DNA of 10,744 bases from Candidatus Pacearchaeota archaeon (GCA_016866975.1 VGKP01000022.1:1-10744), one strand, 5' to 3'. Shown: positions 1 through 10,656, numbered from the stretch's first letter. Translations and numbers: made by a program. The notes: generated from the letters alone by a model not told the origin.

Positions 1-5
1 TTTTT

Positions 6-620
6 ATGTCAAGGAACTTGACTAAAACTCCAGCTTTTAAGCTGGAGTTGTTCCTTGAGCATCCAAAAAACGAGCGCCTGCATCAAACTGCGGCTTTTAA
101 GCCGCAGTGGCGCATCGTTTTTTTGATTTCAATTGTACCTTACCCTACAGGAAAAGTCATCGAAGATACTGGCAGAGCTGTTGCAGATGTCAAAGGCAAC
201 TATGTACAAGGAGAGCCTGTTACAGGAAAATTAAAATTGCAATTTACGGCCGGGGAGTTTGTACCAAGAGATTCACAGATTTTTGTTAAACTTGGAAGTC
301 AAGAGAAAGTGTTTCTTCTTTCTGAAGTATTTGCTGAACCTGCTCAAGAGGGAGTGTTTTTTGCAGAAGGCGTGGAGCTTGTAGGGACAGGAAAAGGCTA
401 TGGCGTTGCAGGTGTTAAGACTATATATCCAGATGTGAGCTTTGAACTACATATAGGGAAAGAAGCAAAGCCTGTCGATGAATCCTCTTCTACTCCAACT
501 AAAGAAGTCTCCAGGGGAGGCGGCGGAGGTGGTGAGAGGAAAGAAGACAAGAGAGCTGAAGAGAAGAAAGATGACAAAAATGAAAGTGACACTATCGTTT
601 TTCGAATAAATAATCGATAG
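6..620 (+). CDS. Hypothetical secreted or membrane-anchored protein, probably 5'-truncated by the window edge; first 40 codons mostly come from an in-frame copy of the double-hairpin element
   Basis: Open frame 6-620. After the repeat comes a hydrophobic stretch and PTGKVI, a beta-rich-looking region, then a Gly6 plus charged low-complexity tail. The ATG at 6-8 straddles the repeat junction, so the true start may lie upstream. Confidence 0.55.
   Translation: MSRNLTKTPAFKLELFLEHPKNERLHQTAAFKPQWRIVFLISIVPYPTGKVIEDTGRAVADVKGNYVQGEPVTGKLKLQFTAGEFVPRDSQIFVKLGSQEKVFLLSEVFAEPAQEGVFFAEGVELVGTGKGYGVAGVKTIYPDVSFELHIGKEAKPVDESSSTPTKEVSRGGGGGGERKEDKRAEEKKDDKNESDTIVFRINNR
8..124. mobile_element. Double-hairpin dispersed element, copy 1 (117 nt, full length); putative non-autonomous MITE/REP-like element
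   Basis: Hairpin A: TCAAGGAAC(9-17)/GTTCCTTGA(50-58), 8-nt bulge, AACTCCAGC(26-34)-TTTTAA-GCTGGAGTT(41-49). Hairpin B: AAAAAACGA(65-73)/TCGTTTTTT(115-123), GCGCC/GGCGC, 8-nt bulge TGCATCAA, ACTGCGGC(87-94)-TTTTAA-GCCGCAGT(101-108). Homologous to 6682-6796 and 2553-2613. Confidence 0.8.
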
Positions 621-722
621 ATTGTGTACCTGATTGTCAATTACGCAGTGTTTGTACTTTCCCAGTGACTCGGTATATAACCTTAATTGTTTCCAATCAT
701 ATTAATCTGTAATTGTGATTTA

Positions 723-730
723 TATATAAA
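723..730 (+). promoter_or_regulatory. TATA box of the small zinc-ribbon gene
   Basis: TATATAAA ending 21 nt before ATG 752, the same spacing as other genes in the window. Confidence 0.65.
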
Positions 731-751
731 GAAAAGGCATCTCAATCATTT

Positions 752-928
752 ATGAACGCACAAACGACCTTGATGACTGCAATGGCCGTATCTTGCAAGA
801 AGTGTGGAGAGCTGTTTGATCTCTCCTATGACCTTGAGCAAGGTGGCGACTCAGGCGATGTGATGAGCGTGTTGCGAAGCAAGCTGACGCGACGTGCAGC
901 ACTGTGCTGGAAGTGCAGGAACACCTAA
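752..928 (+). CDS. Small CxxC...CxxC zinc-ribbon-like protein (58 aa), absent from the ORF track
   Basis: Manual translation: MNAQTTLMTAMAVSCKKCGELFDLSYDLEQGGDSGDVMSVLRSKLTRRAALCWKCRNT*. Two CxxC pairs, a TATA box 21 nt upstream and a T-tract immediately downstream. Confidence 0.75.
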   Translation: MNAQTTLMTAMAVSCKKCGELFDLSYDLEQGGDSGDVMSVLRSKLTRRAALCWKCRNT

Positions 929-932
929 AAAC

Positions 933-952
933 TTTTTTCTTTTTTCTTTTTT
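933..952 (+). terminator. Archaeal oligo-T terminator (T6-C-T6-C-T6)
   Basis: TTTTTTCTTTTTTCTTTTTT, 4 nt after the stop at 926-928. Confidence 0.65.
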
Positions 953-985
953 CGTTCCAGTGAAAAGAGAGGTGCATTTGAAAGA

Positions 986-993
986 TTTATAAA
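986..993 (+). promoter_or_regulatory. TATA box for CDS 1015-1413
   Basis: AAAGA-TTTATAAA ending 21 nt before ATG 1015. Confidence 0.65.
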
Positions 994-1014
994 TTCTTTA
1001 TTACTTTCAGAATT

Positions 1015-1413
1015 ATGACTTGGAGTTATACTGCTGTAGAAGTGATAGCAAGTCTGATTGTGATTTTAGGCCTTATAAAGCTAGTTATTGTGCTGTTCTC
1101 TAAAAAGACTTGGTATTCCAAGGTTGTTGTCCTTATATATAAGAATCCCAAGATTGCAGGATTCGTTTATGCAATCTTTACAGCAGTAGTTTTTTATTAT
1201 CTGATACTTGAATTAACTTTGGTTCAAATAATGGCAGTAATGGGATTTGCAAGTCTTATGTTTGGGATGGCATTATTGCTCTATGCAAAGGATATTCTTC
1301 CAGCAATCACAAAAGGCGTTAATAAACCATTGAGCTTTTGGAGAATTGTATATATCTTGATATGGGTATTATTATTTGTTCTTACAGGGAAAGAGTTGCT
1401 TGGTGCTTTATAG
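1015..1413 (+). CDS. Hypothetical integral membrane protein (132 aa, about 4 TM segments)
   Basis: Four long hydrophobic segments and its own TATA box; family not recognised. Confidence 0.85.
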   Translation: MTWSYTAVEVIASLIVILGLIKLVIVLFSKKTWYSKVVVLIYKNPKIAGFVYAIFTAVVFYYLILELTLVQIMAVMGFASLMFGMALLLYAKDILPAITKGVNKPLSFWRIVYILIWVLLFVLTGKELLGAL

Positions 1414-1454
1414 AGTTCAATAATCTTTATTAATGCTGTTTTGCGGCTCATTTA

Positions 1455-2222
1455 ATGATTTTCTTGGAGGTACTGGTTTATGCTTTGATACAAGGATTAC
1501 TAGAATGGTTTCCTGTCTCTAGTTCTGGACATCTCACGATGGTCCAAATGTTCCTTAAATCCGAACCAGGGGTTTTATTCTTCGTTGCATTGCACTTTGG
1601 GACATTAATGGCTGTTTTTGTCTATTTTGGAAAAGATCTTGTAGATATAATGAGAGAGATGGTTTCGCTTAGGTTTAATACTGAAAATGGCAAATTGGGA
1701 TTATATTTGTTAATTGGGGCTATACCAGCTGTAATAGCCGGAGGATTAATATATACATTCATGGAGAAAATTTCTGATACTTGGTTATTACTTGCCGTAG
1801 GATTTGGCATTACAAGCATATTACTTTTTATGGGATCTATGGCTCCAAAAAGAAATGTGAAGATAACCTGGAAAATAGCCTTATTTATAGGGATTGCACA
1901 AATACTTTCACTATTTAGAGGAGTATCAAGGAGCGGAAGCACAATAGCTACAGGCTTGTTACTTGGATTAAGAGAAAGAGAAGCAATAAAGTTTTCGTAC
2001 CTTCTTTCAATTCCTCTAATTTTTGGAGCGAATCTTGTCCTTGCAGGAAATAAACCGTTGCCGTCTGAGCTTATATGGGCCACATTTGTGGCTTTTGGAG
2101 TAAGCCTGATAGTGATGCATTTCTCTTTCAATTATGTGCTAAACGATCGGAAAAACTTGAGATGGCTGGGATGGTATATGCTTCTGCTTTCTTGTGGTGT
2201 AGGAACATATGCTTTGCTCTGA
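1455..2222 (+). CDS. uppP: Undecaprenyl/polyprenyl-diphosphate phosphatase (BacA/UppP family)
   Basis: Motifs QGLLEWFPVSSSGH, LHFGT, GVSRSGSTI and FSYLLSIP; multi-TM, 255 aa. TATA box TTTATTAA at 1426-1433, 21 nt upstream. Confidence 0.93.
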   Translation: MIFLEVLVYALIQGLLEWFPVSSSGHLTMVQMFLKSEPGVLFFVALHFGTLMAVFVYFGKDLVDIMREMVSLRFNTENGKLGLYLLIGAIPAVIAGGLIYTFMEKISDTWLLLAVGFGITSILLFMGSMAPKRNVKITWKIALFIGIAQILSLFRGVSRSGSTIATGLLLGLREREAIKFSYLLSIPLIFGANLVLAGNKPLPSELIWATFVAFGVSLIVMHFSFNYVLNDRKNLRWLGWYMLLLSCGVGTYALL

Positions 2223-2278
2223 TTTGTTACTGCAGAGTTTAACCTTACCTATTTAAGAAGCTTCTTTCTTGACTTTGA

Positions 2279-2596
2279 ATGAGAGGGAAACTTGAAAAGG
2301 AAATTGAGGCGTTGCTGGGAAGCGGGAAACATGATACAGCTCTTGTACCCCGCCATCGTCATGCAGATCCTCCTAAACAACTCGATCTTTTTGATCCGCA
2401 TCTGGAAAAACACCGACGCAAAAAGCTACAGATGGACCTGAACTTTCATCGTTTTGTCTCACGGGGTGTAGAGCCAATCTATTTTGCCGACAGTTTTACG
2501 GTTTCGACTTTCTATGAGACATTGAGCGCTGCTTTTTATGGAGGATTTTTATGTCAAGGAACTTGGCTAAAACTCCAGCTTTTAAGTCGAGGCTAA
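2279..2596 (+). CDS. Hypothetical protein (105 aa); last 14 codons read through element copy 2
   Basis: TATA-like TATTTAAG at 2250-2257, 21 nt upstream. Removing 2553-2613 restores a TGA right after ...FYGGFL. Confidence 0.6.
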   Translation: MRGKLEKEIEALLGSGKHDTALVPRHRHADPPKQLDLFDPHLEKHRRKKLQMDLNFHRFVSRGVEPIYFADSFTVSTFYETLSAAFYGGFLCQGTWLKLQLLSRG

Positions 2597-2613
2597 AACA
2601 CGAAGAGTTTTGT
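2553..2613. mobile_element. Double-hairpin element, copy 2 (61 nt, internally deleted/degenerate)
   Basis: 2546-2586 matches 1-41 at 40/41 nt. It then continues GTCGAGG (compare GCCGAGG, right arm of hairpin B in copy 3) and ends TTTTGT before GA, as copy 3 does. Confidence 0.7.
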
Positions 2614-2673
2614 GACACCAAAGATTTTTTCTGAAGAAGCAACATACTATTGAGTGTTTGTCTTCAGGTTTTA

Positions 2674-4467
2674 TCATTCAACGACTGCTTTAATCCTTCT
2701 TATTCCTGCAGCAGAAGCTTCTTCTTTTATTATCTTAAAATTTCCTAACTCGGAAGTGTTTGAGACATGAGGTCCAGTGCATATCTCTCTGCTGAACCAT
2801 CCTTTTTTGTCTGATGGATCTTCTATAGTGTATACAGAGACAAGTTCAGGATATTTTGCTCCAAACTCTGCTTGCGCCCCAGATGAGAGGGCATCTTTCA
2901 ATGGAATCTCAGACCTTGTGATTGCAAGAGCTGACTTTATTTTTTCGTTTACATAGTCTTCTATACTCTTAATTTCATCAGACGTAAGCTTTCTTGGGAA
3001 ATTGAAGTCAAACCTTAGCCTTTCTTGAGTTATGTTGGATCCTTTTTGCTTTACTTCTTTTGATAGTATCCTTCTTAACGCTTCATTTAATAGGTGCGTA
3101 GCTGTATGTAGCATTCTTGTGGCTTCTGAATTGTCTGCTAGACCGGATTTGAACATTCCTGAGCTAGCTGTCCTGCTGAGATCTTGATGTTTTTGGAATT
3201 CCTGATTGTATTCTTCTAAGTCTACCTTGAGACCTTTCTCTTCCGCCAATTCTTGTGTCATCTCTATAGGGAATCCATAGCTTTGAAAAAGCAAGAAGGC
3301 TTCTTTGCCGGGAATAATAGTCTTCAAGTCTTCTGAAATCTCTTCGAATTTCTTAAGACCCTTTTCAAGCGTTTGATTGAAACGCATCTCCTCTTCATCA
3401 AGTTGTTGAGTGATGAACTTGTGGTTTCTGTGCAACTCCTGGTAATCAGGGAAGATAGGAAGAATTGTCTTTACTATCTTAGATGCGAATGGAGAAGGGA
3501 TACTCAAGATACGGGCATATCTTATTGCTCTTCTTATCAACCTTCTTAAGACATATCCCTGTCCTAAGTTGCTTGGCTTTATCCCTCTTTCGTCTCCAAG
3601 GATAAAAGTTGCTGCACGAATATGGTCTGCAATAATTCTCATTGCTCTTGTCTCTTCTTCATTCTTGCCATACTTCTTATTAGAGAGAAGTTCTATCTCC
3701 TTGATTATTGGCTGGAAAATGGAAGTTTGATAGTTGTCTTCTAGACCATTTAGGACGGCGAGTGTACGCTCTACACCCATGCCCGTGTCTACGTTCTGCT
3801 GAGACAATGAGAAATATTTTCCAGATTTATCTTTATTGTATTGCATGAAGACATCATTCCATATCTCCACCCAGTTTTCATCTTCAGCATCGAATCTTCT
3901 TGGAGGCTTGGTCTTGGACTTCCAGTAAAACATCTCAGTGTCTGGACCGCAGGGACCGGTATTTCCTGCTGGTCCCCACCAATTATTCTTTTTTGGAAGA
4001 AATGCAATACGTTCTTTTGGAATGCCCAAGGAGAGCCAGATTTTCTCTGATTCTGTATCTTTTGGAGCATCAGAATCTCCTGCGAAGCAAGAGACTGCAA
4101 GCCTCTCTCTAGGTATATTTAATATCTCAGTTAGAAATTTAAAAGAGAACTTGATAGCATCTTCCTTGAAGTAGTCTCCTAGTGACCAGTTACCGAGCAT
4201 CTCAAAAAAGGTGTGGTGTGTAGTATCTCCTACTTCTTCAATATCTTGAGTGCGGATACATTTCTGGACGCTTACTAAGAGTTTTCCTAGAGGATGCTTC
4301 TGGCCAGTGAGATAGGGGACCAGAGGATGCATGCCTGCAGTTGTAAAAAGAACTGTTGGGTCGTTCTCAGGTATAAGGGATGAAGAAGGAATATGCTTAT
4401 GATGCTTGCTTTTGAAGAATTCAATGTACTCCTTTATCAAGTCTTGTCTTGTCTTTAACTTTATCAT
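2674..4467 (-). CDS. alaS: Alanine--tRNA ligase, short bacterial-type form (597 aa) lacking the C-Ala domain
   Basis: DPTVLFTTAGMHPL, QKCIRT, HHTFFEMLGNWSLGDYFK, GPCGPDTE, EIWNDVFMQY, DTGMGVER, IADHIR, editing motifs HTATH and CTGPH; ends at GIRRIKAVVE. TATA box (TTTATTAA on the - strand) at 4489-4496. Confidence 0.97.
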   Translation of the reverse strand: MIKLKTRQDLIKEYIEFFKSKHHKHIPSSSLIPENDPTVLFTTAGMHPLVPYLTGQKHPLGKLLVSVQKCIRTQDIEEVGDTTHHTFFEMLGNWSLGDYFKEDAIKFSFKFLTEILNIPRERLAVSCFAGDSDAPKDTESEKIWLSLGIPKERIAFLPKKNNWWGPAGNTGPCGPDTEMFYWKSKTKPPRRFDAEDENWVEIWNDVFMQYNKDKSGKYFSLSQQNVDTGMGVERTLAVLNGLEDNYQTSIFQPIIKEIELLSNKKYGKNEEETRAMRIIADHIRAATFILGDERGIKPSNLGQGYVLRRLIRRAIRYARILSIPSPFASKIVKTILPIFPDYQELHRNHKFITQQLDEEEMRFNQTLEKGLKKFEEISEDLKTIIPGKEAFLLFQSYGFPIEMTQELAEEKGLKVDLEEYNQEFQKHQDLSRTASSGMFKSGLADNSEATRMLHTATHLLNEALRRILSKEVKQKGSNITQERLRFDFNFPRKLTSDEIKSIEDYVNEKIKSALAITRSEIPLKDALSSGAQAEFGAKYPELVSVYTIEDPSDKKGWFSREICTGPHVSNTSELGNFKIIKEEASAAGIRRIKAVVE

Positions 4468-4510
4468 AAATGTAAAGGAAGAATAGGGTTAATAAAGATT
4501 TTTGCGTTGT

Positions 4511-4912
4511 TTAATTGACAACAGTTATTAAAGGCACACTGGCAAGGTCTTTATCAAATGTGGCTAGAACATTTGCAATATTTTTTCTTATCAAGGCGAT
4601 GATGGTGCAATCTGTAAAGCTTAATCTTAATCTTTCTTGATTTTTGAATATTAACCATCCTTCCTCAAAGACTTCTTCATCTACTTTGATGATTGGGAAT
4701 TCTTTTATTTTTCCGCAATGGGCTAAAGATTTCTCTTTATTCTTTATTCTAGCTGAAAGTACTGTCACACATTCATCAAAAATATAATCTGTGATGTGAG
4801 CGCTCCCATATTTGCCACTTTTAACCCTATCTAATAGTTCTGTCGCTTTTTGGTGATTTTGATCTTCAATATTATGATATGCAATTAGCACGCTTGAATC
4901 AATTATTATCAT
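4511..4912 (-). CDS. vapC: PIN-domain toxin, VapC family (133 aa from ATG 4912)
   Basis: MIIIDSSVLIA (first Asp), DECVT, LSFTDC and TFDKD give the acidic PIN tetrad. The start overlaps the antitoxin end by 14 nt. The track's extension to 5050 lies inside the antitoxin gene. Confidence 0.9.
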   Translation of the reverse strand: MIIIDSSVLIAYHNIEDQNHQKATELLDRVKSGKYGSAHITDYIFDECVTVLSARIKNKEKSLAHCGKIKEFPIIKVDEEVFEEGWLIFKNQERLRLSFTDCTIIALIRKNIANVLATFDKDLASVPLITVVN

Positions 4913-5174
4913 TCTCTTTTCCGTAAAGAATTTCATCAATTTTTTCACTAAGTCTTTCGTTTCCTGGCCCAAAATCGATGGGTCTGAAATCCAATGCTTT
5001 TTTAACTTTCTCAAGATTGTCTTGAAGAGATTTACTTTGTGTTTCTTCAAGGTATTTTTTCATGAGCATTGTCAAAAGATCCCCTATCTTCTTCCTTTCC
5101 GCTATAGCTCTCGCTCTTAGCTTTCTAAAAGTGTCTTCATCTACATCTCTTACTGCTATAAATGTCTTCCCCAT
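4899..5174 (-). CDS. vapB: Ribbon-helix-helix antitoxin, VapB/FitA-like (91 aa)
   Basis: N-terminal TFIAVRDVDEDTFRKLRARAIAERKKIGDLL fits an RHH fold; C-terminal LSEKIDEILYG is typical of archaeal VapB; directly upstream of and overlapping the PIN gene. Confidence 0.8.
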   Translation of the reverse strand: MGKTFIAVRDVDEDTFRKLRARAIAERKKIGDLLTMLMKKYLEETQSKSLQDNLEKVKKALDFRPIDFGPGNERLSEKIDEILYGKENDNN

Positions 5175-5196
5175 ATGTTAAACATGTTTAACATAT
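5173..5196. promoter_or_regulatory. Perfect 24-bp palindromic operator of the vapBC operon
   Basis: ATATGTTAAACATGTTTAACATAT is its own reverse complement. It fills the gap between the TATA box (5196-5203, TTTATATA on the - strand) and the antitoxin ATG. Confidence 0.8.
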
Positions 5197-5208
5197 ATAT
5201 AAATCTTA

Positions 5209-5823
5209 CTAAATTTCTATTATCTTGCCTTCTCTCCCTACATTGATAACTCTTGTCCCACCTATCTTATTTTCCATGCCTCCAGCTTCGTGGATGTGGC
5301 CATGAAGAAGGATATCTGGCTTGAACTGCTTTATAGCCTTGGTGATTGCCTTGCTTCCGGGAATGCCTGAGAATTCTGATGCACTACCTTTGGGGTGCAT
5401 ATGAGTGACCATTATTTTTTTCTCAATGCCTTGCAATCCAGAGTTTGCTTTCTTCAATGTATTAAAAAGTTCATCTTCGGATAGCGCCCCTGGGAAAAAC
5501 ATGATATCTGAAGAGCCTCCGGCACCAAAGAAGCCTATATTCTCGTATTTTACTGAATAACCGTGGATGTTTTTAACCCCATAAAGCTCGGCCAAGAAAT
5601 CTGCTGTGGCAAAAGATTCGTGATTACCCGGGATTATAAGGACTTTCCTCTTTTTCTGCCGGAAAGGCTTTATAAGGTCTTTCGTCTCAACATTGCCGAC
5701 TATATCTCCGCATAAAACTACAAGGTCGACATTCTCTTTCTCTGCTCTTTTTGCAAGCTCTTTTGTTAGTCTTGCGTCTCCGTGAATGTCTGCAGCTGCA
5801 AGTATCTTGAATCTTTTATGCAT
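5209..5823 (-). CDS. Calcineurin-like metallophosphoesterase (204 aa)
   Basis: Metal-binding motifs DIHG, CGD, GNHE, THMHP and HGHIH in canonical order. TATA-like CTTATAAT (5845-5852, - strand) 21 nt upstream. Confidence 0.92.
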   Translation of the reverse strand: MHKRFKILAAADIHGDARLTKELAKRAEKENVDLVVLCGDIVGNVETKDLIKPFRQKKRKVLIIPGNHESFATADFLAELYGVKNIHGYSVKYENIGFFGAGGSSDIMFFPGALSEDELFNTLKKANSGLQGIEKKIMVTHMHPKGSASEFSGIPGSKAITKAIKQFKPDILLHGHIHEAGGMENKIGGTRVINVGREGKIIEI

Positions 5824-5894
5824 AAATATGACTACAGTTTTATCATTATAAGTCTTGTGGAGAGGTTTAAAAATTAGTTAGCCTTCAATATTTC

Positions 5895-6455
5895 ATGAAC
5901 AAAAGAGGAACAAAGTGGCTTGGATTAGGAATATTGCTCACACTTTTGGTCTTGACAGGATTTTATATTTTCTCAGCGACAATTGGTCCTAGGTATGACC
6001 ATTATTATGATAGTAAGATGGCTACAGGGGAACTTGCAAATCCCATATCTGGGATGAGTATTAGCGAAGCGCATGAGAGATTTAATGAAGATCATGTACA
6101 TTATTTCTTGGCTTTGTTGAGAGTGTATAATCTTCATCCGGCTACTCCCGGGGGAGATTTTCCTCAATTTGAAATTATTGTAAATGAAGAGAGTTATAAG
6201 GTAGTTGTATTATCTGGATCTATAAGCGTCAAGAGAGGAAAACCTAACGAGAAGGACATTGTGATATATACTACACAATCGGAAATATTGAGCGCGTTAC
6301 AAAATCCAGATTCAGTGTCAGAATCTTTCAATTCAGGTGCATTAAGAATAGAGTATATTGCCGATAGGAGCACCTTGCTTTACAAAGGTTATGATTCTGT
6401 CTTTTCTCAATATAAGAGAGGAATAACAGGAAATATTATAAGGTCATTTACATAG
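5895..6455 (+). CDS. N-terminally anchored protein with a possible SCP2-like (sterol carrier protein 2) lipid-binding domain (186 aa)
   Basis: MNKRG followed by a TM helix. YKVVVLSGSISVKRGKPNEKDIVIYTTQSEILSAL...SFNSGALRIE follows the SCP2 pattern by eye. TATA box TTTAAAAA at 5866-5873. The CDS is solid; the domain call is tentative. Confidence 0.6.
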   Translation: MNKRGTKWLGLGILLTLLVLTGFYIFSATIGPRYDHYYDSKMATGELANPISGMSISEAHERFNEDHVHYFLALLRVYNLHPATPGGDFPQFEIIVNEESYKVVVLSGSISVKRGKPNEKDIVIYTTQSEILSALQNPDSVSESFNSGALRIEYIADRSTLLYKGYDSVFSQYKRGITGNIIRSFT

Positions 6456-6465
6456 AAAGTAAAAT

Positions 6466-6696
6466 ATGGGTTTGGAAGACATAGATGTGACCAAAGTTAT
6501 AGAAGAGTTGGAGAATATTTCAGGAGTAAGAGTGTTTGATGAGGATTTAAGAGCCGGAATCTTTTATATAGGGATGGAGTTGCCAGATGGAAAGAGCGAG
6601 CTGACTGCGCTGGTCGAGATATATGAAGATAGAGCCTATTTCTTAAAAGAAGGCGTACCTGAAACAACACCTCCTTCTTATGTCGGGAACCGATGA
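6466..6696 (+). CDS. Hypothetical acidic protein, probably truncated by element copy 3
   Basis: Starts 10 nt after the previous stop. The last codons (VGNR*) come from the repeat. Removing 6682-6796 joins the gene in frame to a 21-codon tail ending at TAA 6860-6862. Confidence 0.6.
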   Translation: MGLEDIDVTKVIEELENISGVRVFDEDLRAGIFYIGMELPDGKSELTALVEIYEDRAYFLKEGVPETTPPSYVGNR

Positions 6697-6796
6697 AAAC
6701 CACACCTTTCAAGGTGTGGTGGTTCCCGAGCATCTCCAAAAACGAGCGCCTGCAACAAACCTCGGCTTTTAAGCCGAGGTGGCGCATCGTTTTTGT
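6682..6796. mobile_element. Double-hairpin element, copy 3 (115 nt, full length)
   Basis: Hairpin A: TCGGGAACC(6683-91)/GGTTCCCGA(6721-29), 7-nt bulge, ACCACACC-TTTCAA-GGTGTGGT. Hairpin B: CAAAAACGA/TCGTTTTTG, GCGCC/GGCGC, bulge TGCAACAA, ACCTCGGC-TTTTAA-GCCGAGGT. Covaries with copy 1. Confidence 0.8.
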
Positions 6797-6855
6797 GATC
6801 TTAAAGTCAATCATGTATTGGCCAAGAACGATCTTCAGCCCATAAATGTCTTGAG

Positions 6856-7711: not shown

Positions 7712-9084
7712 CAGAATTTTACCTTCCTAGCAAATTTCTTTGCAAACTTCATCATTGTCTTCTGGTCTAACGCTCCTGACTCAAGGCCTTTCATTGCGGA
7801 TCCTGAGTGCATCATTTCCTTGAGGAGCCTATATTGTTTGATGAGGGCGCGAATATCGGAAGTTGTTGTTCCTGAACCTTTTGCGATACGGGCAATGCGA
7901 GAGGTCTGCTTCTCTAATATCTCAGGGTTTTCTTTCTCTTCTCTTGTCATAGATTTAATTGCTGCTTTCCAGTGTTTCATCTGATTTTCCTGCTTACTGA
8001 CTGCTTCAGTAGGCACTTTATCCTTGAGATGCCCTAATCCAGGAATATGTGAAAGCAATTTGTCAAAAGAACCCATCCCTGCCATTGACTCTAATTGTGA
8101 TGCGAAGTCATCTAAAGAAAACTTGCCTTCTTCAAGCCTTTTTTGTTGGGCCTCAATAGCGCTTTTGTCCACTACTGAGTGTATCTTTTCAAGCAACGAT
8201 TTAAGATCTCCCATGCCTAAAAGACGAGAGAGGAATGAGTCTGGGTCGAATGACTCAAGGTCCGATGGTTTTTCTCCAGTGCCTATAAATACTATAGGGG
8301 CTTTCACTTCTGCACATGCAGTAAGTGCACCTCCTGCTTTTGCCGTAGAATCCATTTTGGTAATTATCACACCCGTTATATCAAGGGCTTCTTTAAATGT
8401 CTGAGCTTGTTTTTTTGCCGTCTGGCCTACATCTGCAGACATTACAAGAAATGTCTCTGTTGGCTTTGCCAATTTTGCTATATCTTTTATCTCTTTTATT
8501 AGGTCTGAGGAGAGAGCGTCTCGGCCCGCAGTGTCAATAATGACTAGAGAGTATTTCTTTAATTCTGGCTCGAATTTTTTCCATATTTTCTTGGGGTCTT
8601 TTTCTTCTGGGGAAATGAAGGCTGGTATGTTTAACTTGTCGCAGAGTTGTTTCAACTGATCTGATGCGGCGGGTCGATGGACATCCAGTCCAATCGCGCA
8701 GACCTTGTTGCCTCTCTTGGCATAATATGACGCAAGCTTACTAATTGTAGTGGTCTTTCCTTGCCCATAAAGGCCGAGCATCATAAAAATGTTTCCCCTC
8801 TCTTTTAGCATGATATCTTTCTTTTCCCCTAAAAGACGTACCAGCTCTTCATGAAGGAGTTTAATGATATGTTCTTTTTTCTCAAGGCCTTTTATACGTT
8901 CATCCAAAGCAGCCTGCTTTATCTTCTTAGTAATTTCTAACACCAAGGAAATATTGACATCTGCTTCAATCAATGCCCTTTGAAGGTCTTTGATAATTTG
9001 GTCAACTAGTGCCTTGTCAAGAAAGATAGCATTCGCTATTTTATCTGTTGCTTTTTGCAGGACTGAAGAGAGTTTTTCTAACAT
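7711..9084 (-). CDS. srp54: Signal recognition particle 54 kDa protein (archaeal SRP54)
   Basis: N-domain LIEADVN, G1 GLYGQGKTTT, DVHRPAA, DTAGR, TKMD, GGALT, GTGEK, LLGMGDL, and a Met-rich M domain with IKSMTREE and RIAKGSG. Confidence 0.97.
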   Translation of the reverse strand: MLEKLSSVLQKATDKIANAIFLDKALVDQIIKDLQRALIEADVNISLVLEITKKIKQAALDERIKGLEKKEHIIKLLHEELVRLLGEKKDIMLKERGNIFMMLGLYGQGKTTTISKLASYYAKRGNKVCAIGLDVHRPAASDQLKQLCDKLNIPAFISPEEKDPKKIWKKFEPELKKYSLVIIDTAGRDALSSDLIKEIKDIAKLAKPTETFLVMSADVGQTAKKQAQTFKEALDITGVIITKMDSTAKAGGALTACAEVKAPIVFIGTGEKPSDLESFDPDSFLSRLLGMGDLKSLLEKIHSVVDKSAIEAQQKRLEEGKFSLDDFASQLESMAGMGSFDKLLSHIPGLGHLKDKVPTEAVSKQENQMKHWKAAIKSMTREEKENPEILEKQTSRIARIAKGSGTTTSDIRALIKQYRLLKEMMHSGSAMKGLESGALDQKTMMKFAKKFARKVKF

Positions 9085-9893
9085 GATAATGTGTCTAATG
9101 GACTCCTTATATTCTTTATGGAATGTTGAGATATGTGGGTATATATCTGAGTTGTTTTTATATCACTATGTCCCAAGAGCTTTTGAATTACTTTTAAATC
9201 TGTTCCTTGCTCGAGCAAGTGAGTGGCGAAACTGTGGCGCAGAAGATGAGGATAGACCTCTTTAGTAATCCTTGCCCTTATTGCCGCTTTCTCAACAATT
9301 GCCTGAATTGTAGCAGTAGTAAGTTTTCCACCTCTTTGAGATTGAAATAAGACTGTTCCCTGCGTTAAAACAGAATAGTTTTTCAACTTCTCTTTAATTG
9401 ATTCCGGTATTTTTACAAACCTGTCTTTTTTTCCTTTTGCCATTCTTATATGAATCAGACCTTCTTCAAAATTCAAGTCGTTTTTGTTTAAAGAGACAAT
9501 TTCTGAAACGCGGAGACCGCATCCATAAAGCACCTTAAGAATTAATTCATGCTTTACATTGAGAGGAGCATTAATTAATTTTCCAGCTTCTTCTTTTGTC
9601 AATATATCGGGTAAGATTTTATTTCTTTTCGGGCGCGGAATATTTATTTTGATATTAAGAACTTTTTCAAAGAAAAACTGAATTGCGAAAATTTCATGTG
9701 CAATCGTAGAAGGGGCTTGTGTCTTTATCTGAATTTGAATATAATCCTTAACTTCTTGTTCGCTAAACTGCTTGTTCTTTAAATAGTTTAAGAATTTATT
9801 TAGCGAGTTCGTATAACTTTTGAGAGTTTTGTGTGAAAAATTACGGATTTCAATCTCTTGCTGAAGTTTTTGCAGAGCTTCTTCTTTGTTCAT
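9078..9893 (-). CDS. Tyrosine recombinase (Xer/IntI-related, 271 aa) lacking the IntI-specific insertion
   Basis: Catalytic set YGCGLRVSE (R), AKGKKDR (K), HLLRHSFATH (HxxR), LLGHSDIKTTQIYTH (H, Y). N-terminal SAM-like IRNFSHKTLKSY and C-terminal IRSPLD. TATA-like ATTTAAAA (9915-9922, - strand) 21 nt upstream. Confidence 0.92.
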   Translation of the reverse strand: MNKEEALQKLQQEIEIRNFSHKTLKSYTNSLNKFLNYLKNKQFSEQEVKDYIQIQIKTQAPSTIAHEIFAIQFFFEKVLNIKINIPRPKRNKILPDILTKEEAGKLINAPLNVKHELILKVLYGCGLRVSEIVSLNKNDLNFEEGLIHIRMAKGKKDRFVKIPESIKEKLKNYSVLTQGTVLFQSQRGGKLTTATIQAIVEKAAIRARITKEVYPHLLRHSFATHLLEQGTDLKVIQKLLGHSDIKTTQIYTHISQHSIKNIRSPLDTLSC

Positions 9894-9976: not shown

Positions 9977-9980
9977 TAGT

Positions 9981-9989
9981 GTTATACGC
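9981..9989 (+). other. Putative cassette insertion point (attI/R'-like core, G|TTATACGC)
   Basis: GTTATACGC is the exact reverse complement of GCGTATAAC at 10543-10551, at the far end of the cassette. Confidence 0.65.
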
Positions 9990-9991
9990 AA

Positions 9992-10006
9992 TAAAAACGA
10001 AGCCCC
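9992..10006. repeat. Left 15-bp inverted repeat bracketing the cassette ORF
   Basis: TAAAAACGAAGCCCC, perfect reverse complement of 10481-10495. Confidence 0.85.
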
Positions 10007-10070
10007 ACCTCGCGCTATGCGCGAAGACAAAACACAAACTATTTAAACTAAAAGATTTTAAGTGAATGAT

Positions 10071-10478
10071 ATGAGAAAAGGAGAATCTTCATTTAACAAT
10101 CTCAACAAAGTTCTTATAGGATTACTCATAATTGGATTAATCTCAAAATTATACAATCTCTATTTGAATAGAGCTACCTTCGAAAACTTTAATTTCATGT
10201 TTTCTTGGACACTAATTTTGGCTTTTGTTCTTCCTTTAATTTTCATTTACGGAGCAATCAAGCAATCAAAGTTTTGGTATATTGTTATGGGCATCTGGGT
10301 TTTTAGAGAGTTTGATAATATGTGGACAAATTATGTGATTGCTCCTTTAATGTTGGGAACAAAAGACCAATACTTCTTGTATAATTTTGCAATAACATTA
10401 TTACTTCTTGGAATAGCAGTAATTGGAGTAATCCTATACTTAAAATCTTTTAAAACAATAAAAGAAGCAGTTGAATAG
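10071..10478 (+). CDS. Hypothetical 4-TM membrane protein (135 aa from ATG 10071), cassette cargo
   Basis: Four hydrophobic segments. TATA-like TTTAAACT (10042-10049) lies 21 nt before ATG 10071, which favours that start over GTG 10062. Confidence 0.8.
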   Translation: MRKGESSFNNLNKVLIGLLIIGLISKLYNLYLNRATFENFNFMFSWTLILAFVLPLIFIYGAIKQSKFWYIVMGIWVFREFDNMWTNYVIAPLMLGTKDQYFLYNFAITLLLLGIAVIGVILYLKSFKTIKEAVE

Positions 10479-10480
10479 TA

Positions 10481-10495
10481 GGGGCTTCGTTTTTA
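10481..10495. repeat. Right 15-bp inverted repeat bracketing the cassette ORF
   Basis: GGGGCTTCGTTTTTA, 2 nt after the stop codon. Confidence 0.85.
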
Positions 10496-10497
10496 CT

Positions 10498-10540
10498 TTC
10501 TCGCTACGCTCGAACCACATTGCATTCTCGCTTACGCTCG
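10498..10540. repeat. Short direct repeat TTCTCGC(T)TACGCTCG, two copies
   Basis: 10498-10512 and 10525-10540 differ by one inserted T. Confidence 0.75.
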
Positions 10541-10544
10541 GGGC

Positions 10545-10656
10545 GTATAACAGCGATTTAACGGCTCGGAGGTTGCACCTCCTCAACCCATATTTTTTGC
10601 TTATTGATTATTTTTTTAGATAGTGCAAAAAACATCGTTAAATCGCGATGTTATAT
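10545..10656 (+). other. attC-like folded recombination site (112 nt)
   Basis: R''-like GTATAAC (10545-51) and R'-like GTTATAT (10650-56). TATAACA pairs with TGTTATA; GCGATTTAACG (10553-63) pairs perfectly with CGTTAAATCGC (10636-46); 2-nt GA bulge at 10647-48. Inner stems GGAGGT/ACCTCC and TTTTTTGC/GCAAAAAA. Confidence 0.7.

Follow-up and report, generated by a model that had tools for sequence, protein, structure and literature searches.

A double-hairpin repeat of a small DPANN genome, probably a PATE family of IS200/IS605 type with a readable DNA-guide rule

What kind of element are the double-hairpin repeats of this contig, and what moves them? The window, i.e. the whole stretch of 10,744 nucleotides analysed here (VGKP01000022.1:1-10744, Candidatus Pacearchaeota archaeon, GCA_016866975.1), holds two full copies and one shortened copy of a repeat that is the most abundant one in this DPANN (Pacearchaeota-type) genome and the source of many assembly breaks. 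A preliminary description made from the sequence alone had called it undescribed, had proposed that selection acts on a single-stranded DNA (ssDNA) or RNA fold, and had likened it to the HUH (Y1)-mobilised REP and PATE elements. Because the sequence rules that we find match the IS200/IS605 (“peel and paste”) type of transposase, we regard the repeats as a new family within a kind of genomic parasite that is already known: a PATE family, i.e. non-autonomous IS200/IS605-type derivatives moved as ssDNA by a Y1 (HUH) TnpA acting in trans (probability about 0.85). “Undescribed” thus holds at the level of the family, but not for the kind, which was defined in 2011 (PMC3119063).

Structure of the three copies and covariation of the fold

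Copy 1 spans positions 8..127 of the + strand (120 nt, subfamily I, hairpins A1 + B1) and is preceded by TTAT at 4..7 (+), the left cleavage/target tetranucleotide, which belongs to the flank and lies outside the element. The assembly breaks within this repeat, which places copy 1 at the start of the contig; the genome has at least 10 further loci identical to it. Hairpin A (9..58, +) is made of an outer stem (9-17/50-58), a 5’ bulge (18-27), an inner stem (28-34/41-47) and a loop (35-40); A-T extensions of the inner stem are possible. The four nucleotides 5’ of the foot of the inner hairpin, AAAA at 24..27 (+), form the putative left guide, G_L. A single-stranded linker, GCATCC (59..64, +), whose columns are nearly invariant in the alignment, joins hairpin A to hairpin B (65..123, +), where an outer stem with one bulged A (65-78/109-123) encloses a 5’ bulge (79-87), an inner stem (88-94/101-107) and a loop (95-100). 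Here the putative right guide, G_R (CAAA, 84..87, +), predicts TG[A]T as the right cleavage site, and TGAT at 124..127 (+) makes up the final 4 nt of the element. Copy 2 (6682..6799, +, 118 nt, subfamily II, hairpins A2 + B2) has about 20 other loci at 97-100% identity. Its target TTAT (6678..6681, +) was read off the sequence together with the flank statistics given below, and its parts are G_L AAAA (6696-6699, +), G_R CAAA (6756-6759, +) and the terminal TGAT (6796-6799, +). As ssDNA, both copies fold into two bulged hairpins (dG -41.9 kcal/mol and z -10.9 for copy 1, dG -42.8 kcal/mol and z -11.6 for copy 2).

The two-hairpin design first noticed at 8 and 6682 and its compensated stems were found as described, and the two starts (G8 and G6682, the preceding TTAT being flank) stand; the ends move from 124 and 6796 to 127 and 6799. 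The one-sided bulge is present but measures 8-9 nt, not 7-8, and the apex is TTTTAA or TTTCAA as proposed, flipped to TTAAAA in some copies. The third, shortened copy reported at 2553 was confirmed and is internally deleted (2549..2616, +): a TTAT (2549-2552) is followed by the first 34 nt of the element (2553-2586), through the loop of hairpin A, and by a degenerate right end (...TTTTGTGAC; in the feature listing, ...AAAACACGAAGAGTTTTGTGAC) which stops at about 2616. Over its first 41 nt it shares 98% identity with positions 1-41 of the window, and its fold is lost (z 0.17).

The preliminary description had named covariation in a larger alignment as the measure of a selected structure. We aligned 46 distinct copies from 11 genomes: 97.3% of the cells are paired, and 22 of the 39 pairs have changed on both sides, 5 and 6 of them in helices 1 and 2 (hairpin A) and 6 and 5 in helices 3 and 4 (hairpin B). 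None of 500 shuffles reached the observed pairing and slid controls were 36-47% paired; the repeat pattern is far beyond chance. Covariation in all four helices thus bears out selection on a fold. As to which nucleic acid folds, 96% of the pairs are strictly Watson-Crick, and among the mismatches G.T is not favoured over A.C (20 vs 21), which argues that the selected fold is DNA and not RNA, the other option offered at the outset.

The same observation weighs on the idea that the repeat encodes a structured small RNA, or serves as a portable transcription terminator, and that its RNA fold is under selection. This idea would account for the strength of the fold (z about -11), for the run of 5-7 T in which the element ends, as archaeal terminators do, and for the many copies placed directly downstream of a gene in the same orientation (the upstream ORF is on the same strand in ~30/44). 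We consider it very improbable: besides the lack of preference for G.U-type pairs, both strands fold equally well, the Rfam comparison suggested earlier returned 0 matches (E <= 1, whole window), copies occur inside ORFs and upstream of genes, element orientation tracks GC skew more than gene direction (12 vs 2 in discordant cases), and 98-100% identity at ~60 unrelated sites is a signature of transposition. A secondary terminator effect of the element is possible.

Ends, target and DNA guides

Flank statistics compiled over 93 distinct insertion sites show a strong bias on the 5’ side, with T(-4) in 87, T(-3) in 70, A(-2) in 87 and T(-1) in 89 sites, so that TTAT is found in 65/93 and T-N-A-T in 83/93; the 3’ flank is free of constraint, and the element itself ends in TGAT in 81/93. 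The defining features of PATEs (PMC3119063 Table 4) are all present. Firstly, there are no terminal inverted repeats, the 5’ end (GTCAAGGAAC) showing no match to the reverse complement of the 3’ end (ATCAAAAAAACG). Secondly, no target duplication is seen across the 93 sites, where TTAT stands on the 5’ side, the 3’ side is free, and the internal TGAT differs from the flank in 70% of sites; a 2-nt AT duplication is formally possible but would leave the asymmetry unaccounted for. Thirdly, IS-related palindromes lie near both termini, hairpin A running from nt 2 and hairpin B stopping 4 nt before the 3’ end. Finally, the element is too short for a transposase gene.

In IS608, guide and cleavage site pair as G1:C-3, G2:C-4 and G4:C-1, with A at G3 (PMC3201880, PMC5934647). 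Applied to the repeats, this rule predicts a TT[A]T target from G_L AAAA and a TG[A]T end from G_R CAAA; the single base by which the two guides differ (A vs C) is complementary to the single base by which the two cleavage sites differ (T vs G). Natural variation follows the same rule. Where the left guide carries A, T is found at -3 in 109/126 sites; with C in the guide, G is found at -3 in 7/8 (TGAT/TGAG), from 6 genomes (Fisher 3e-5 to 3e-8); with T, A or G is found in 5/6. Of 150 right ends, 139 combine CAAA with TGAT. We take this agreement, read from sequence variation, as the decisive evidence for mobilisation of IS200/IS605 type.

The likeness to IS608/ISDra2 (PMC3201880, PMC5934647) extends to the layout of the ends: the left cleavage site belongs to the flank, with insertion 3’ of it and no duplication, the right cleavage site is the last four bases of the element, each guide occupies the 4 nt that precede the hairpin foot on its 5’ side and makes the same three pairings, A occupies guide position 3 and cleavage position -2, and 19-20 nt separate the left cleavage site from the hairpin foot. 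Unlike IS608/ISDra2, the element has no tnpA, no tnpB and extra outer stems; its cleavage sites are TTAT/TGAT instead of TTAC/TCAA, and the distance between the foot and the right cleavage site is 16 nt rather than 10.

As an IS200/IS605 derivative, the element would be a left end fused to a right end. The inner 7-8-bp hairpin with its T-rich loop would serve as the transposase-binding palindrome, and the four bases 5’ of its foot would act as a DNA guide pairing with the cleavage site. On the left, the guide AAAA would pick the target TTAT, with insertion 3’ of it and no duplication, and the right guide CAAA would specify the element’s own terminal TGAT. By analogy, a Y1 HUH TnpA would catalyse these reactions on the top strand as ssDNA, via a circular ssDNA intermediate; we infer both the catalysis by TnpA and a coupling of transposition to replication. 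An additional outer stem closes off the bulge that contains each guide, an arrangement peculiar to this family. The outer stem, if formed, would keep the left cleavage site apart from the guide, which counts against the model.

A candidate transposase and competing mobilisers

No transposase is encoded within the window, as had been noted. A search of the genome for a mobiliser, also suggested then, found an intact Y1 TnpA of 155 aa (C10:122-589) in a resident element, IS-a, which is of IS200 type (NCBIfam IS200 77.8 bits, cut-off 55; REP_Tyr_transpos 31.2 bits, cut-off 80). The autonomous elements of the lineage obey the guide rule too: IS-a in 5 genomes does so (G_L AAAT with a TTAA flank, G_R GAAA with a TCAT end); in the IS-a of genome G009, G_L is ATAT with an ATAA flank and G_R is GAAG with a TCAC end, and a second element, IS-b, combines a guide GATG with TCAC. 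The end hairpins of IS-a from 5 genomes align to element hairpins A and B with scores of 17-24 (shuffled null maxima 13-17), one match being 23/23 identical, and the covariance model of the element matches the left and right IS-a hairpins at E 0.06 and 0.24. The geometry differs, with 12 nt from cleavage site to hairpin foot in IS-a and 20 nt in the element, and IS-a lacks outer stems. Together with the absence of terminal inverted repeats and target duplication and the IS608-type rule at both ends, this homology to IS200-type ends supports the HUH/Y1 mobilisation proposed earlier. The odds are about even that the enzyme is this resident TnpA or a close relative.

A PF01797 match is found in 10/29 carrier genomes of the order sample and an IS-a-type TnpA in 5/29 (no significant association, p about 0.15, in MAGs that are 62-96% complete). 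No Y1 gene was detected in the high-copy carriers G005, G055 and G135, nor in G008, an assembly of 10 contigs. No full-length element with these exact ends was found around any tnpA gene, element copies do not flank Y1 genes, and neither an empty site nor a circle junction was seen among the contigs of public runs. As most carrier MAGs have no detectable Y1 gene, the TnpA of IS-a is a candidate for the cognate transposase; we assume that the absent genes may reflect MAG incompleteness or past activity, as in Haloquadratum.

A related enzyme could be at work if the repeats were of REP/BIME type, spread by a domesticated single-copy RAYT (TnpA-REP). The repeats do resemble REP/BIME with RAYT (PMC3333891, PMC8266576) in their Y1-type enzyme logic, in hairpins recognised by shape and in high copy number; they are often paired, and relatives have single-hairpin forms. 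The resident TnpA, however, falls far below the cut-off of the REP-transposase model (31 bits against 80) and exceeds that of the IS200 model (78 against 55), no inverted copies of the element lie on either side of it, a 5’ motif of GTAG type is lacking, and exact transposon ends with a target rule are features of an IS end. We therefore give a RAYT little credence.

A tyrosine recombinase was considered as well, with the repeats as attC-like folded sites or “empty cassettes” of an integron-like system using a Xer-type enzyme. As in attC, stem sequence varies while structure is kept, XerA occurs in every genome (here at window 9078-9893, NCBIfam XerA_Arch 234 bits), some regions resemble arrays in which a single ORF separates co-oriented elements (C3:46.6-53 kb), and contigs of two other samples lack a 669-nt unit found at window 9980-10648. 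That cassette, however, recombines at a TGTTATA core which the element does not contain. The attC core boxes (RYYYAAC / GTTRRRY; AAC/GTT) are not conserved in the element, whose copies are dispersed over 23 contigs and mostly solitary, with flanks unrelated right up to TTAT|G and TGAT|, and the model has no place for guide-target covariation or for homology to IS200-type ends; its chances are slim. The repeat could instead be a conventional MITE for which a DDE transposase duplicates 2 bp (AT) of the target, but this is scarcely credible: AT does stand on both sides (..AT|GTC...TTG|AT..), so that excision of the element plus one AT would leave the same empty site as in the Y1 model, but terminal inverted repeats are lacking, a 2-nt AT duplication does not explain why T(-4) and T(-3) are conserved on the 5’ side only, the TG of the 3’ TGAT is constant whereas the 5’ flank has TT, and guide covariation is not expected.

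Spread, relatives and genomic setting

The host is a tiny freshwater archaeon with an 806-kb genome, in which BLAST found 77 loci, 50 of them full length. The genome holds about 63 element loci, which upholds the early guess of many copies genome-wide; most are 98-100% identical within the two subfamilies, they are scattered across 23 contigs between flanks that are unrelated, and they amount to about 0.9% of the genome. The modal length is exactly 120 nt (118-120 nt), modules A1/A2 and B1/B2/B3 are reshuffled among copies, and in tandem elements the next copy begins directly after TGAT. Long forms (170-240 nt) gain extra hairpins only, a 50-nt module being placed directly after the GCATCC linker. 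These 50-nt hairpin-pair modules sit in loops of the elements and of other hairpin repeats, and may be a separate class of loop-invading mini-element, by analogy with haloarchaeal SMR-A. The family is carried by 29 of the 151 genomes sampled in the order and is confined to Nanoarchaeota/Pacearchaeota/Woesearchaeota-type MAGs; single-hairpin forms occur in relatives.

Among known PATEs, those of Haloquadratum walsbyi (e.g. HqIRS46/HqIRS56; Dyall-Smith et al. 2011, PMC3119063) share with the repeats the lack of inverted terminal repeats and target duplication, near-terminal palindromes that resemble those of IS605-type transposons, a length too short for a transposase, homogeneous bursts of copies >90% identical, mobility where intact tnpA genes are few or absent, and small foreign repeats inside palindromes (SMR-A there, the 50-nt modules here). 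Unlike them, our family has a DPANN host with a genome <1 Mb, a second, outer stem that encloses each end hairpin and places the guide in a bulge, a modal length of exactly 120 nt and reshuffled modules, and there is no sequence similarity. It is possible, if rather doubtful, that the family is a naturally programmable, self-contained IS200/IS605 end, in which the outer stem cages the guide, modules A1/A2 and B1/B2/B3 shuffle freely, guide variants redirect insertion (TTAT, TGAT, TAAT) across species, spread proceeds without a resident transposase in most hosts, and the 50-nt modules form a loop-invading class of their own. If so, the enzyme for spread could be encoded by a virus or plasmid, or by the organism that hosts these symbionts.

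With the PATE reading, the commonest repeat of this genome acquires a mechanism, and the DNA-guide rule of IS608, known from bacteria, becomes readable from natural variation in uncultured archaea, single-base retargeting included. For annotators, a covariance model combined with the T-N-A-T / TGAT rule provides a way of masking the elements.

Copies are found inside ORFs, upstream of genes and next to genes. Three are read through in frame as a 40-residue insert in predicted proteins, and the same rule makes such inserts recognisable as insertions. Rickettsia palindromic elements (RPEs) are likewise palindromic repeats of ~100-150 nt in a reduced genome, some of them in frame in protein genes; no mobiliser and no target rule are known for RPEs. 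The present family resembles them in these respects but has no homology to them, and an IS200/IS605 rule can be read in it.

Orientation also shows a pattern. In 48-51 of 63 loci (p 4e-5) the top strand of the element coincides with the strand that is locally G-rich, a measure confounded by the G-rich coding strand (skew 0.11). Within contigs, orientation is uniform (0/12 in C3, 7/0 in C2), even where coding is balanced, and in discordant cases it follows GC skew more often than gene direction, as given above. The IS200/IS605 family is reported to insert into the lagging-strand template (PMC3201880), and the orientation pattern fits such insertion, within the limits that the coding strand sets on GC skew.

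Copies of the element in the window, the genome and the order

Folded as single-stranded DNA, the two full copies of the element in the window (copy 1, 120 nt, at 8-127; copy 2, 118 nt, at 6682-6799) form two hairpins, A and B, of a common design. In each hairpin, an outer stem of 9-14 bp leads into a 5'-side bulge of 8-9 nt and a 7-8-bp inner stem, capped by a T-rich loop that reads TTTTAA or TTTCAA. Copies 1 and 2 have fold energies of -41.9 and -42.8 kcal/mol (z -10.9 and -11.6 against shuffles), and the complementary strand folds equally strongly. A third copy, at 2553-2616, is internally deleted: nt 1-34 remain, together with a right end that has decayed. These observations confirm the repeats reported in the preliminary description, which had also quoted the differences between their stems correctly. 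Comparison with Rfam, as had been proposed there, left the whole window without a match at E ≤ 1, and a tRNA scan of the window found none. The proteins of the window include XerA_Arch (234 bits) and a RIO-type kinase, and its genes thus fit an archaeal origin. Inside alaS, a stretch of 21 nt (4189-4209) resembles the linker region of copy 2 (GTTCCCGAGCATCTCCAAAAA) at 90% identity, probably by chance; contig depth rises at 3950-4308, in what looks like conserved alaS sequence from other organisms.

The source genome (806 kb in 31 contigs, 89% complete) yielded 77 loci by BLAST, 50 of them full length. After merging of fragments, about 63 loci remain, representing about 0.9% of its DNA, so that the many copies predicted from the window are indeed present genome-wide. 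Many contigs, including that of the window (C22), start or stop inside a copy, indicating that the repeat breaks the assembly. In contigs from four lake-water metagenome runs, summed depth over the two repeat bins is 1179 and 493 versus about 20 in the rest of the window, which agrees with a high copy number. Two subfamilies dominate, each 98-100% identical internally: type I, with hairpins A1 and B1 (for example 8-127), and type II, with A2 and B2 (for example 6682-6799). Further forms are mosaics (A1-B2, A2-B1 and A1-B3), copies with only one hairpin, long forms (170-240 nt), hybrids in which the loop of hairpin B is the exact point of change between subfamilies (at C29:2224, C3:33559 and C12:13542, C numbers being contigs of this genome) and copies with inverted loops and unchanged stems (TTTTAA to TTAAAA, TTTCAA to TTGAAA). 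The latter are found at L021:1504-1623 (an extracted locus, at C1:46341), L027:1503-1625 (C1:39227), C6:34045 and C1:38737. Loop flips and subfamily switches together suggest template switching or recombination within palindromes.

The element is present in 13 of 16 genomes of the same genus and, by covariance model, in 29 of 151 sampled genomes of the order, i.e. in 17 of 84 genera and three families. In some of these (G168, G135, G138, G055 and G005), nearly identical copies have multiplied in separate bursts. When 185,579 species representatives were scanned for an exact pattern, at least 98 stretches were returned, and among the matches listed every one lies in a MAG that bears the label Nanoarchaeota, Candidatus Pacearchaeota or Candidatus Woesearchaeota.

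Ends, guides and the selected fold

End and flank statistics were computed over 93 distinct insertion sites. The 5' flank carries T at -4 (87 sites), T at -3 (70, the rest being G in 10, A in 9 and C in 4), A at -2 (87) and T at -1 (89), with an extra preference for T upstream at -6 and -7, while the 3' flank has no conserved bases. The element itself ends in TGAT at 81 of the 93 sites, is most commonly exactly 120 nt long (47/93) and has no terminal inverted repeats; in tandem elements, the following copy starts straight after the TGAT of the preceding one. Asymmetric ends, a specific tetranucleotide confined to the left side, insertion that duplicates nothing and a hairpin close within each end are together the signature of the IS200/IS605 family. 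For copy 2, the expected empty site is ...CCTCCTTCTTAT joined straight to CTTAAAGTC.... A DDE-type MITE with an AT duplication predicts the same empty site, but leaves the lack of inverted repeats and the one-sided target unexplained. Contigs of the four lake-water runs, which break at repeats, contained no joint across 6682-6799 or 8-127, nor was a circle junction seen in the sequences examined, and the same-genus genomes are too distant for base-level empty sites, the RIO-kinase gene beside the element being only 69-74% identical in them.

In IS608, the cleavage sites are not read by the transposase but are paired by guides, the four bases 5' of the hairpin foot: guide base 1 pairs with position -3 of the site, base 2 with -4 and base 4 with -1, while base 3, an A, enters the protein (PMC3201880, PMC5934647). 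The left site lies in the flank, 19 nt from the hairpin foot, and is also the target; the right site is the element's end (PMC3201880, PMC5934647). We applied this rule to the element with the inner hairpin feet at its nucleotides C21 and C81, a one-pair shift of the foot that fits both ends; a guide register at nt 16-19 misfits the right end and was rejected. The left guide, AAAA (window 24-27), then predicts T-T-[A]-T, and this is the target observed; from the right guide, CAAA (window 84-87), the expected site is T-G-[A]-T, as found at the right end. Thus, the sole difference between the two guides (A versus C) is complementary to the sole difference between the two cleavage sites (T versus G).

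Natural variation follows the same rule. At the right end, CAAA occurs with TGAT in 139 of 150 copies. On the left, sites with A as guide base 1 have T at -3 in 109 of 126 cases, whereas those with C have G in 7 of 8, spread over 6 genomes; the 5' end of the lone C-guide exception is decayed, and five of the seven fitting C-guide sites are non-tandem insertions. This guide-flank association gives Fisher p values of 3e-5 to 3e-8. With T as guide base 1 (6 sites), position -3 is A three times and G twice, and G as guide base 1 is found with T in the one clear case (L050), a G.T wobble. The natural guide variants of the element thus act like the guide mutants of IS608 that have been studied experimentally.

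Guide covariation also bears on whether the element is an integron-like site of a Xer-type recombinase. The window itself contains a 669-nt unit that is absent from contigs of two other samples. We disfavour this reading: such covariation has no place in Xer-type chemistry, copies of the element stand singly between unrelated flanks, and the 669-nt unit recombines at another core, TGTTATA. The unit occupies 9980-10648; contigs of two lake-water runs, X4 and X6, join 9979 to 10649, and the joint shares the 7 bases of that core. This small-gene unit, beside an xerA-like gene, shows presence/absence polymorphism and is separate from the element.

Selection on the fold was examined in an alignment of 46 distinct full copies from 11 genomes, scored against the four-helix structure. 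Standard pairs occupy 97.3% of alignment cells versus 36-47% in slid controls, and both sides have changed in 22 of 39 pairs. Double-change cells number 218, versus 60 +/- 6 in shuffles, none of 500 of which reached the observed value. Each of the four helices contains 5-6 covarying pairs, so that selection on a fold, as had been proposed, is borne out in every helix. Watson-Crick pairs make up 1714 of 1782 cells, and the exceptions include 20 G.T and 21 A.C. As G.T is no commoner than A.C, whereas a selected RNA would favour G.U, this points to DNA as the fold under selection: from the original wording, "ssDNA or RNA", the first term stands and the second falls away. The hairpins are polar, the 5' arms of the inner stems being C-rich (51% C). 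The same lack of bias towards wobble pairs disfavours the reading as a small RNA or a terminator, as do the equally good folds of the two strands, insertions within ORFs and the identity of copies to each other; some secondary effect on transcription is possible.

Within a contig, copies share one orientation (plus/minus 0/12 on C3, 7/0 on C2, 4/0 on C7 and 4/0 on C9), and this persists where coding is strand-balanced. At 48 of the 63 loci, the top strand of the element is the locally G-rich one (p 4e-5; odds ratio 10), and where GC skew and coding majority conflict, skew is followed 12 times and the coding strand twice, counts in which the coding strand is G-rich too (skew 0.11), neighbouring copies are not independent and the origin is unplaced. 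The orientation is consistent with, but does not prove, insertion into the lagging-strand template, a pattern reported in the IS200/IS605 family.

Resident Y1 transposases and mobilisation

The genome carries Y1 transposase genes, for which the preliminary description had suggested a search. An intact IS200/IS605-type element, IS-a, encodes at C10:122-589 a TnpA of 155 aa with an HUH motif and a catalytic tyrosine region, which scores 77.8 bits on the NCBIfam IS200 model (cut-off 55). For the REP-transposase model, with its cut-off of 80, the same protein's score is only 31 bits, which speaks against a REP/RAYT repeat. The ends of IS-a were defined by comparison with orthologues in four other genomes (proteins 55-64% identical). 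On the left stands the flank TTAA, from which 12 nt lead to a C-rich hairpin, with guide AAAT and the boundary TTAA|TTGAGAAG; at the right end, GAAA precedes the hairpin and the terminus is TCAT. An alternative left boundary, at TCTAAAG after TGAT, is contradicted by the four orthologous copies, the difference between contigs C21 and C2 being internal. In the IS-a of another genome, G009, both guides and both cleavage sites are altered together (ATAT with ATAA, GAAG with TCAC). A second such element, IS-b, is present only at two contig ends (L032:1-230 at the start of C6, and L033 at the end of C12) as the last 63 tnpA codons and the right end, CCCCACGG TCTT GCCGTGGGG AGCTTCAC; the remainder is absent from the assembly, probably collapsed as a repeat. 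Its guide and site are GATG with TCAC. Since the ends of both IS-a and IS-b follow the guide rule, the rule holds for the lineage's autonomous elements too.

The end hairpins of IS-a align locally with those of the element at scores of 17-24 (shuffled maxima 13-17), one match being identical at 23 of 23 positions, and the left end aligns with element positions 7-49, over 43 nt. In G009, the covariance model of the element finds exactly the left and right hairpins of IS-a (E 0.06 and 0.24). A BLAST comparison with 38 Y1-gene loci gave no match for the element, the similarity being seen only by covariance model and local alignment. Given this homology, the element amounts to a fused pair of IS-a-like ends, each in an extra outer stem. 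Guide covariation and homology to IS-a ends make PATEs, non-autonomous derivatives of IS200/IS605, its closest known kind, and both support the original interpretation of a PATE-like element mobilised by an HUH (Y1) enzyme. The element is a new family of this known kind, and as far as the literature searched shows, no family with a readable mechanism precedes it among DPANN archaea. That literature yielded, for MITEs or PATEs of DPANN, only one general survey, which describes a Woesearchaeal genome with a high MITE density (PMC11602168). Nothing in the genome matched PF07282 (TnpB) above cut-off; the element is therefore neither an omega-RNA nor TnpB-linked.

Several results do not fit a Y1-mobilised element. 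In the order sample, these genes do not track the element: any PF01797 match occurs in 10 of 29 carriers versus 26 of 122 non-carriers (p ~0.15), and an IS-a-type TnpA in 5 of 29 versus 9 of 122 (p ~0.15), neither association being significant. No Y1 gene was found in three high-copy carriers (G005, G055 and G135) nor in the 10-contig genome G008. Repeated IS copies are often missing from MAGs. The PATEs of Haloquadratum move though nearly all tnpA genes are broken (PMC3119063). No full-length case of a tnpA between ends of exactly the element type was found, and a search of all DNA examined for left end, cargo and right end returned only one long form of 325 nt. The outer stem, if formed, would keep the left cleavage site apart from its guide. 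In many subfamilies, though not universally, nt 1-15 of the element can form an alternative mini-hairpin of 6 bp (GTCAAG-GAA-CTTGAC), which would bring the two together instead.

Nested modules, other repeats and in-frame insertions

The long forms at C13:7488-7614, C2:40396-40522, C24:4583-4631 and C3:37482-37608 contain 50-nt modules, each a pair of small hairpins of which the first (TCAAGAAT..ATTCTTGA) is separated by TGGCA from the second. The modules occupy two set positions, one following CATCCAAA and one within the loop of hairpin B, and similar modules occur in the loops of other hairpin repeats (C4:43281, C8:36362 and C2:56594). Their ends disobey the T-N-A-T rule; in behaviour they resemble the SMR-A repeats of Haloquadratum, which invade PATE palindromes. 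Other repeat families, at C12:1-163, C5:47557-47700, C10:23310-23538, C7:4845-5064 and C9:7968-8246, are perfect tandem arrays of 33-90-nt units with a small hairpin per unit (e.g. GTTGACCCACAAGAACCGTAGGTTCTTAGGAAGGGA); lacking spacers, they are not CRISPR arrays.

At L199:828-939, on contig C42 of G168, a copy of the element lies within a Y1 transposase gene that is now two ORFs. Type I elements are open in frame +1, the starting ATG being composed of the AT of the flank and the G of the element. In-frame inserts of 120 nt at L015:1508-1627 (C8:6418-6537) and C19:4465-4584 lie in ORFs of 1118 and 1566 aa, within the N-terminal signal/TM part, and add the residues MSRNLTKTPAFKLELFLEHPKNERLHQTAAFKPQWRIVFLI. 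The window ORF at 6-620 has the same ATG start, with the G provided by copy 1 (8-127).
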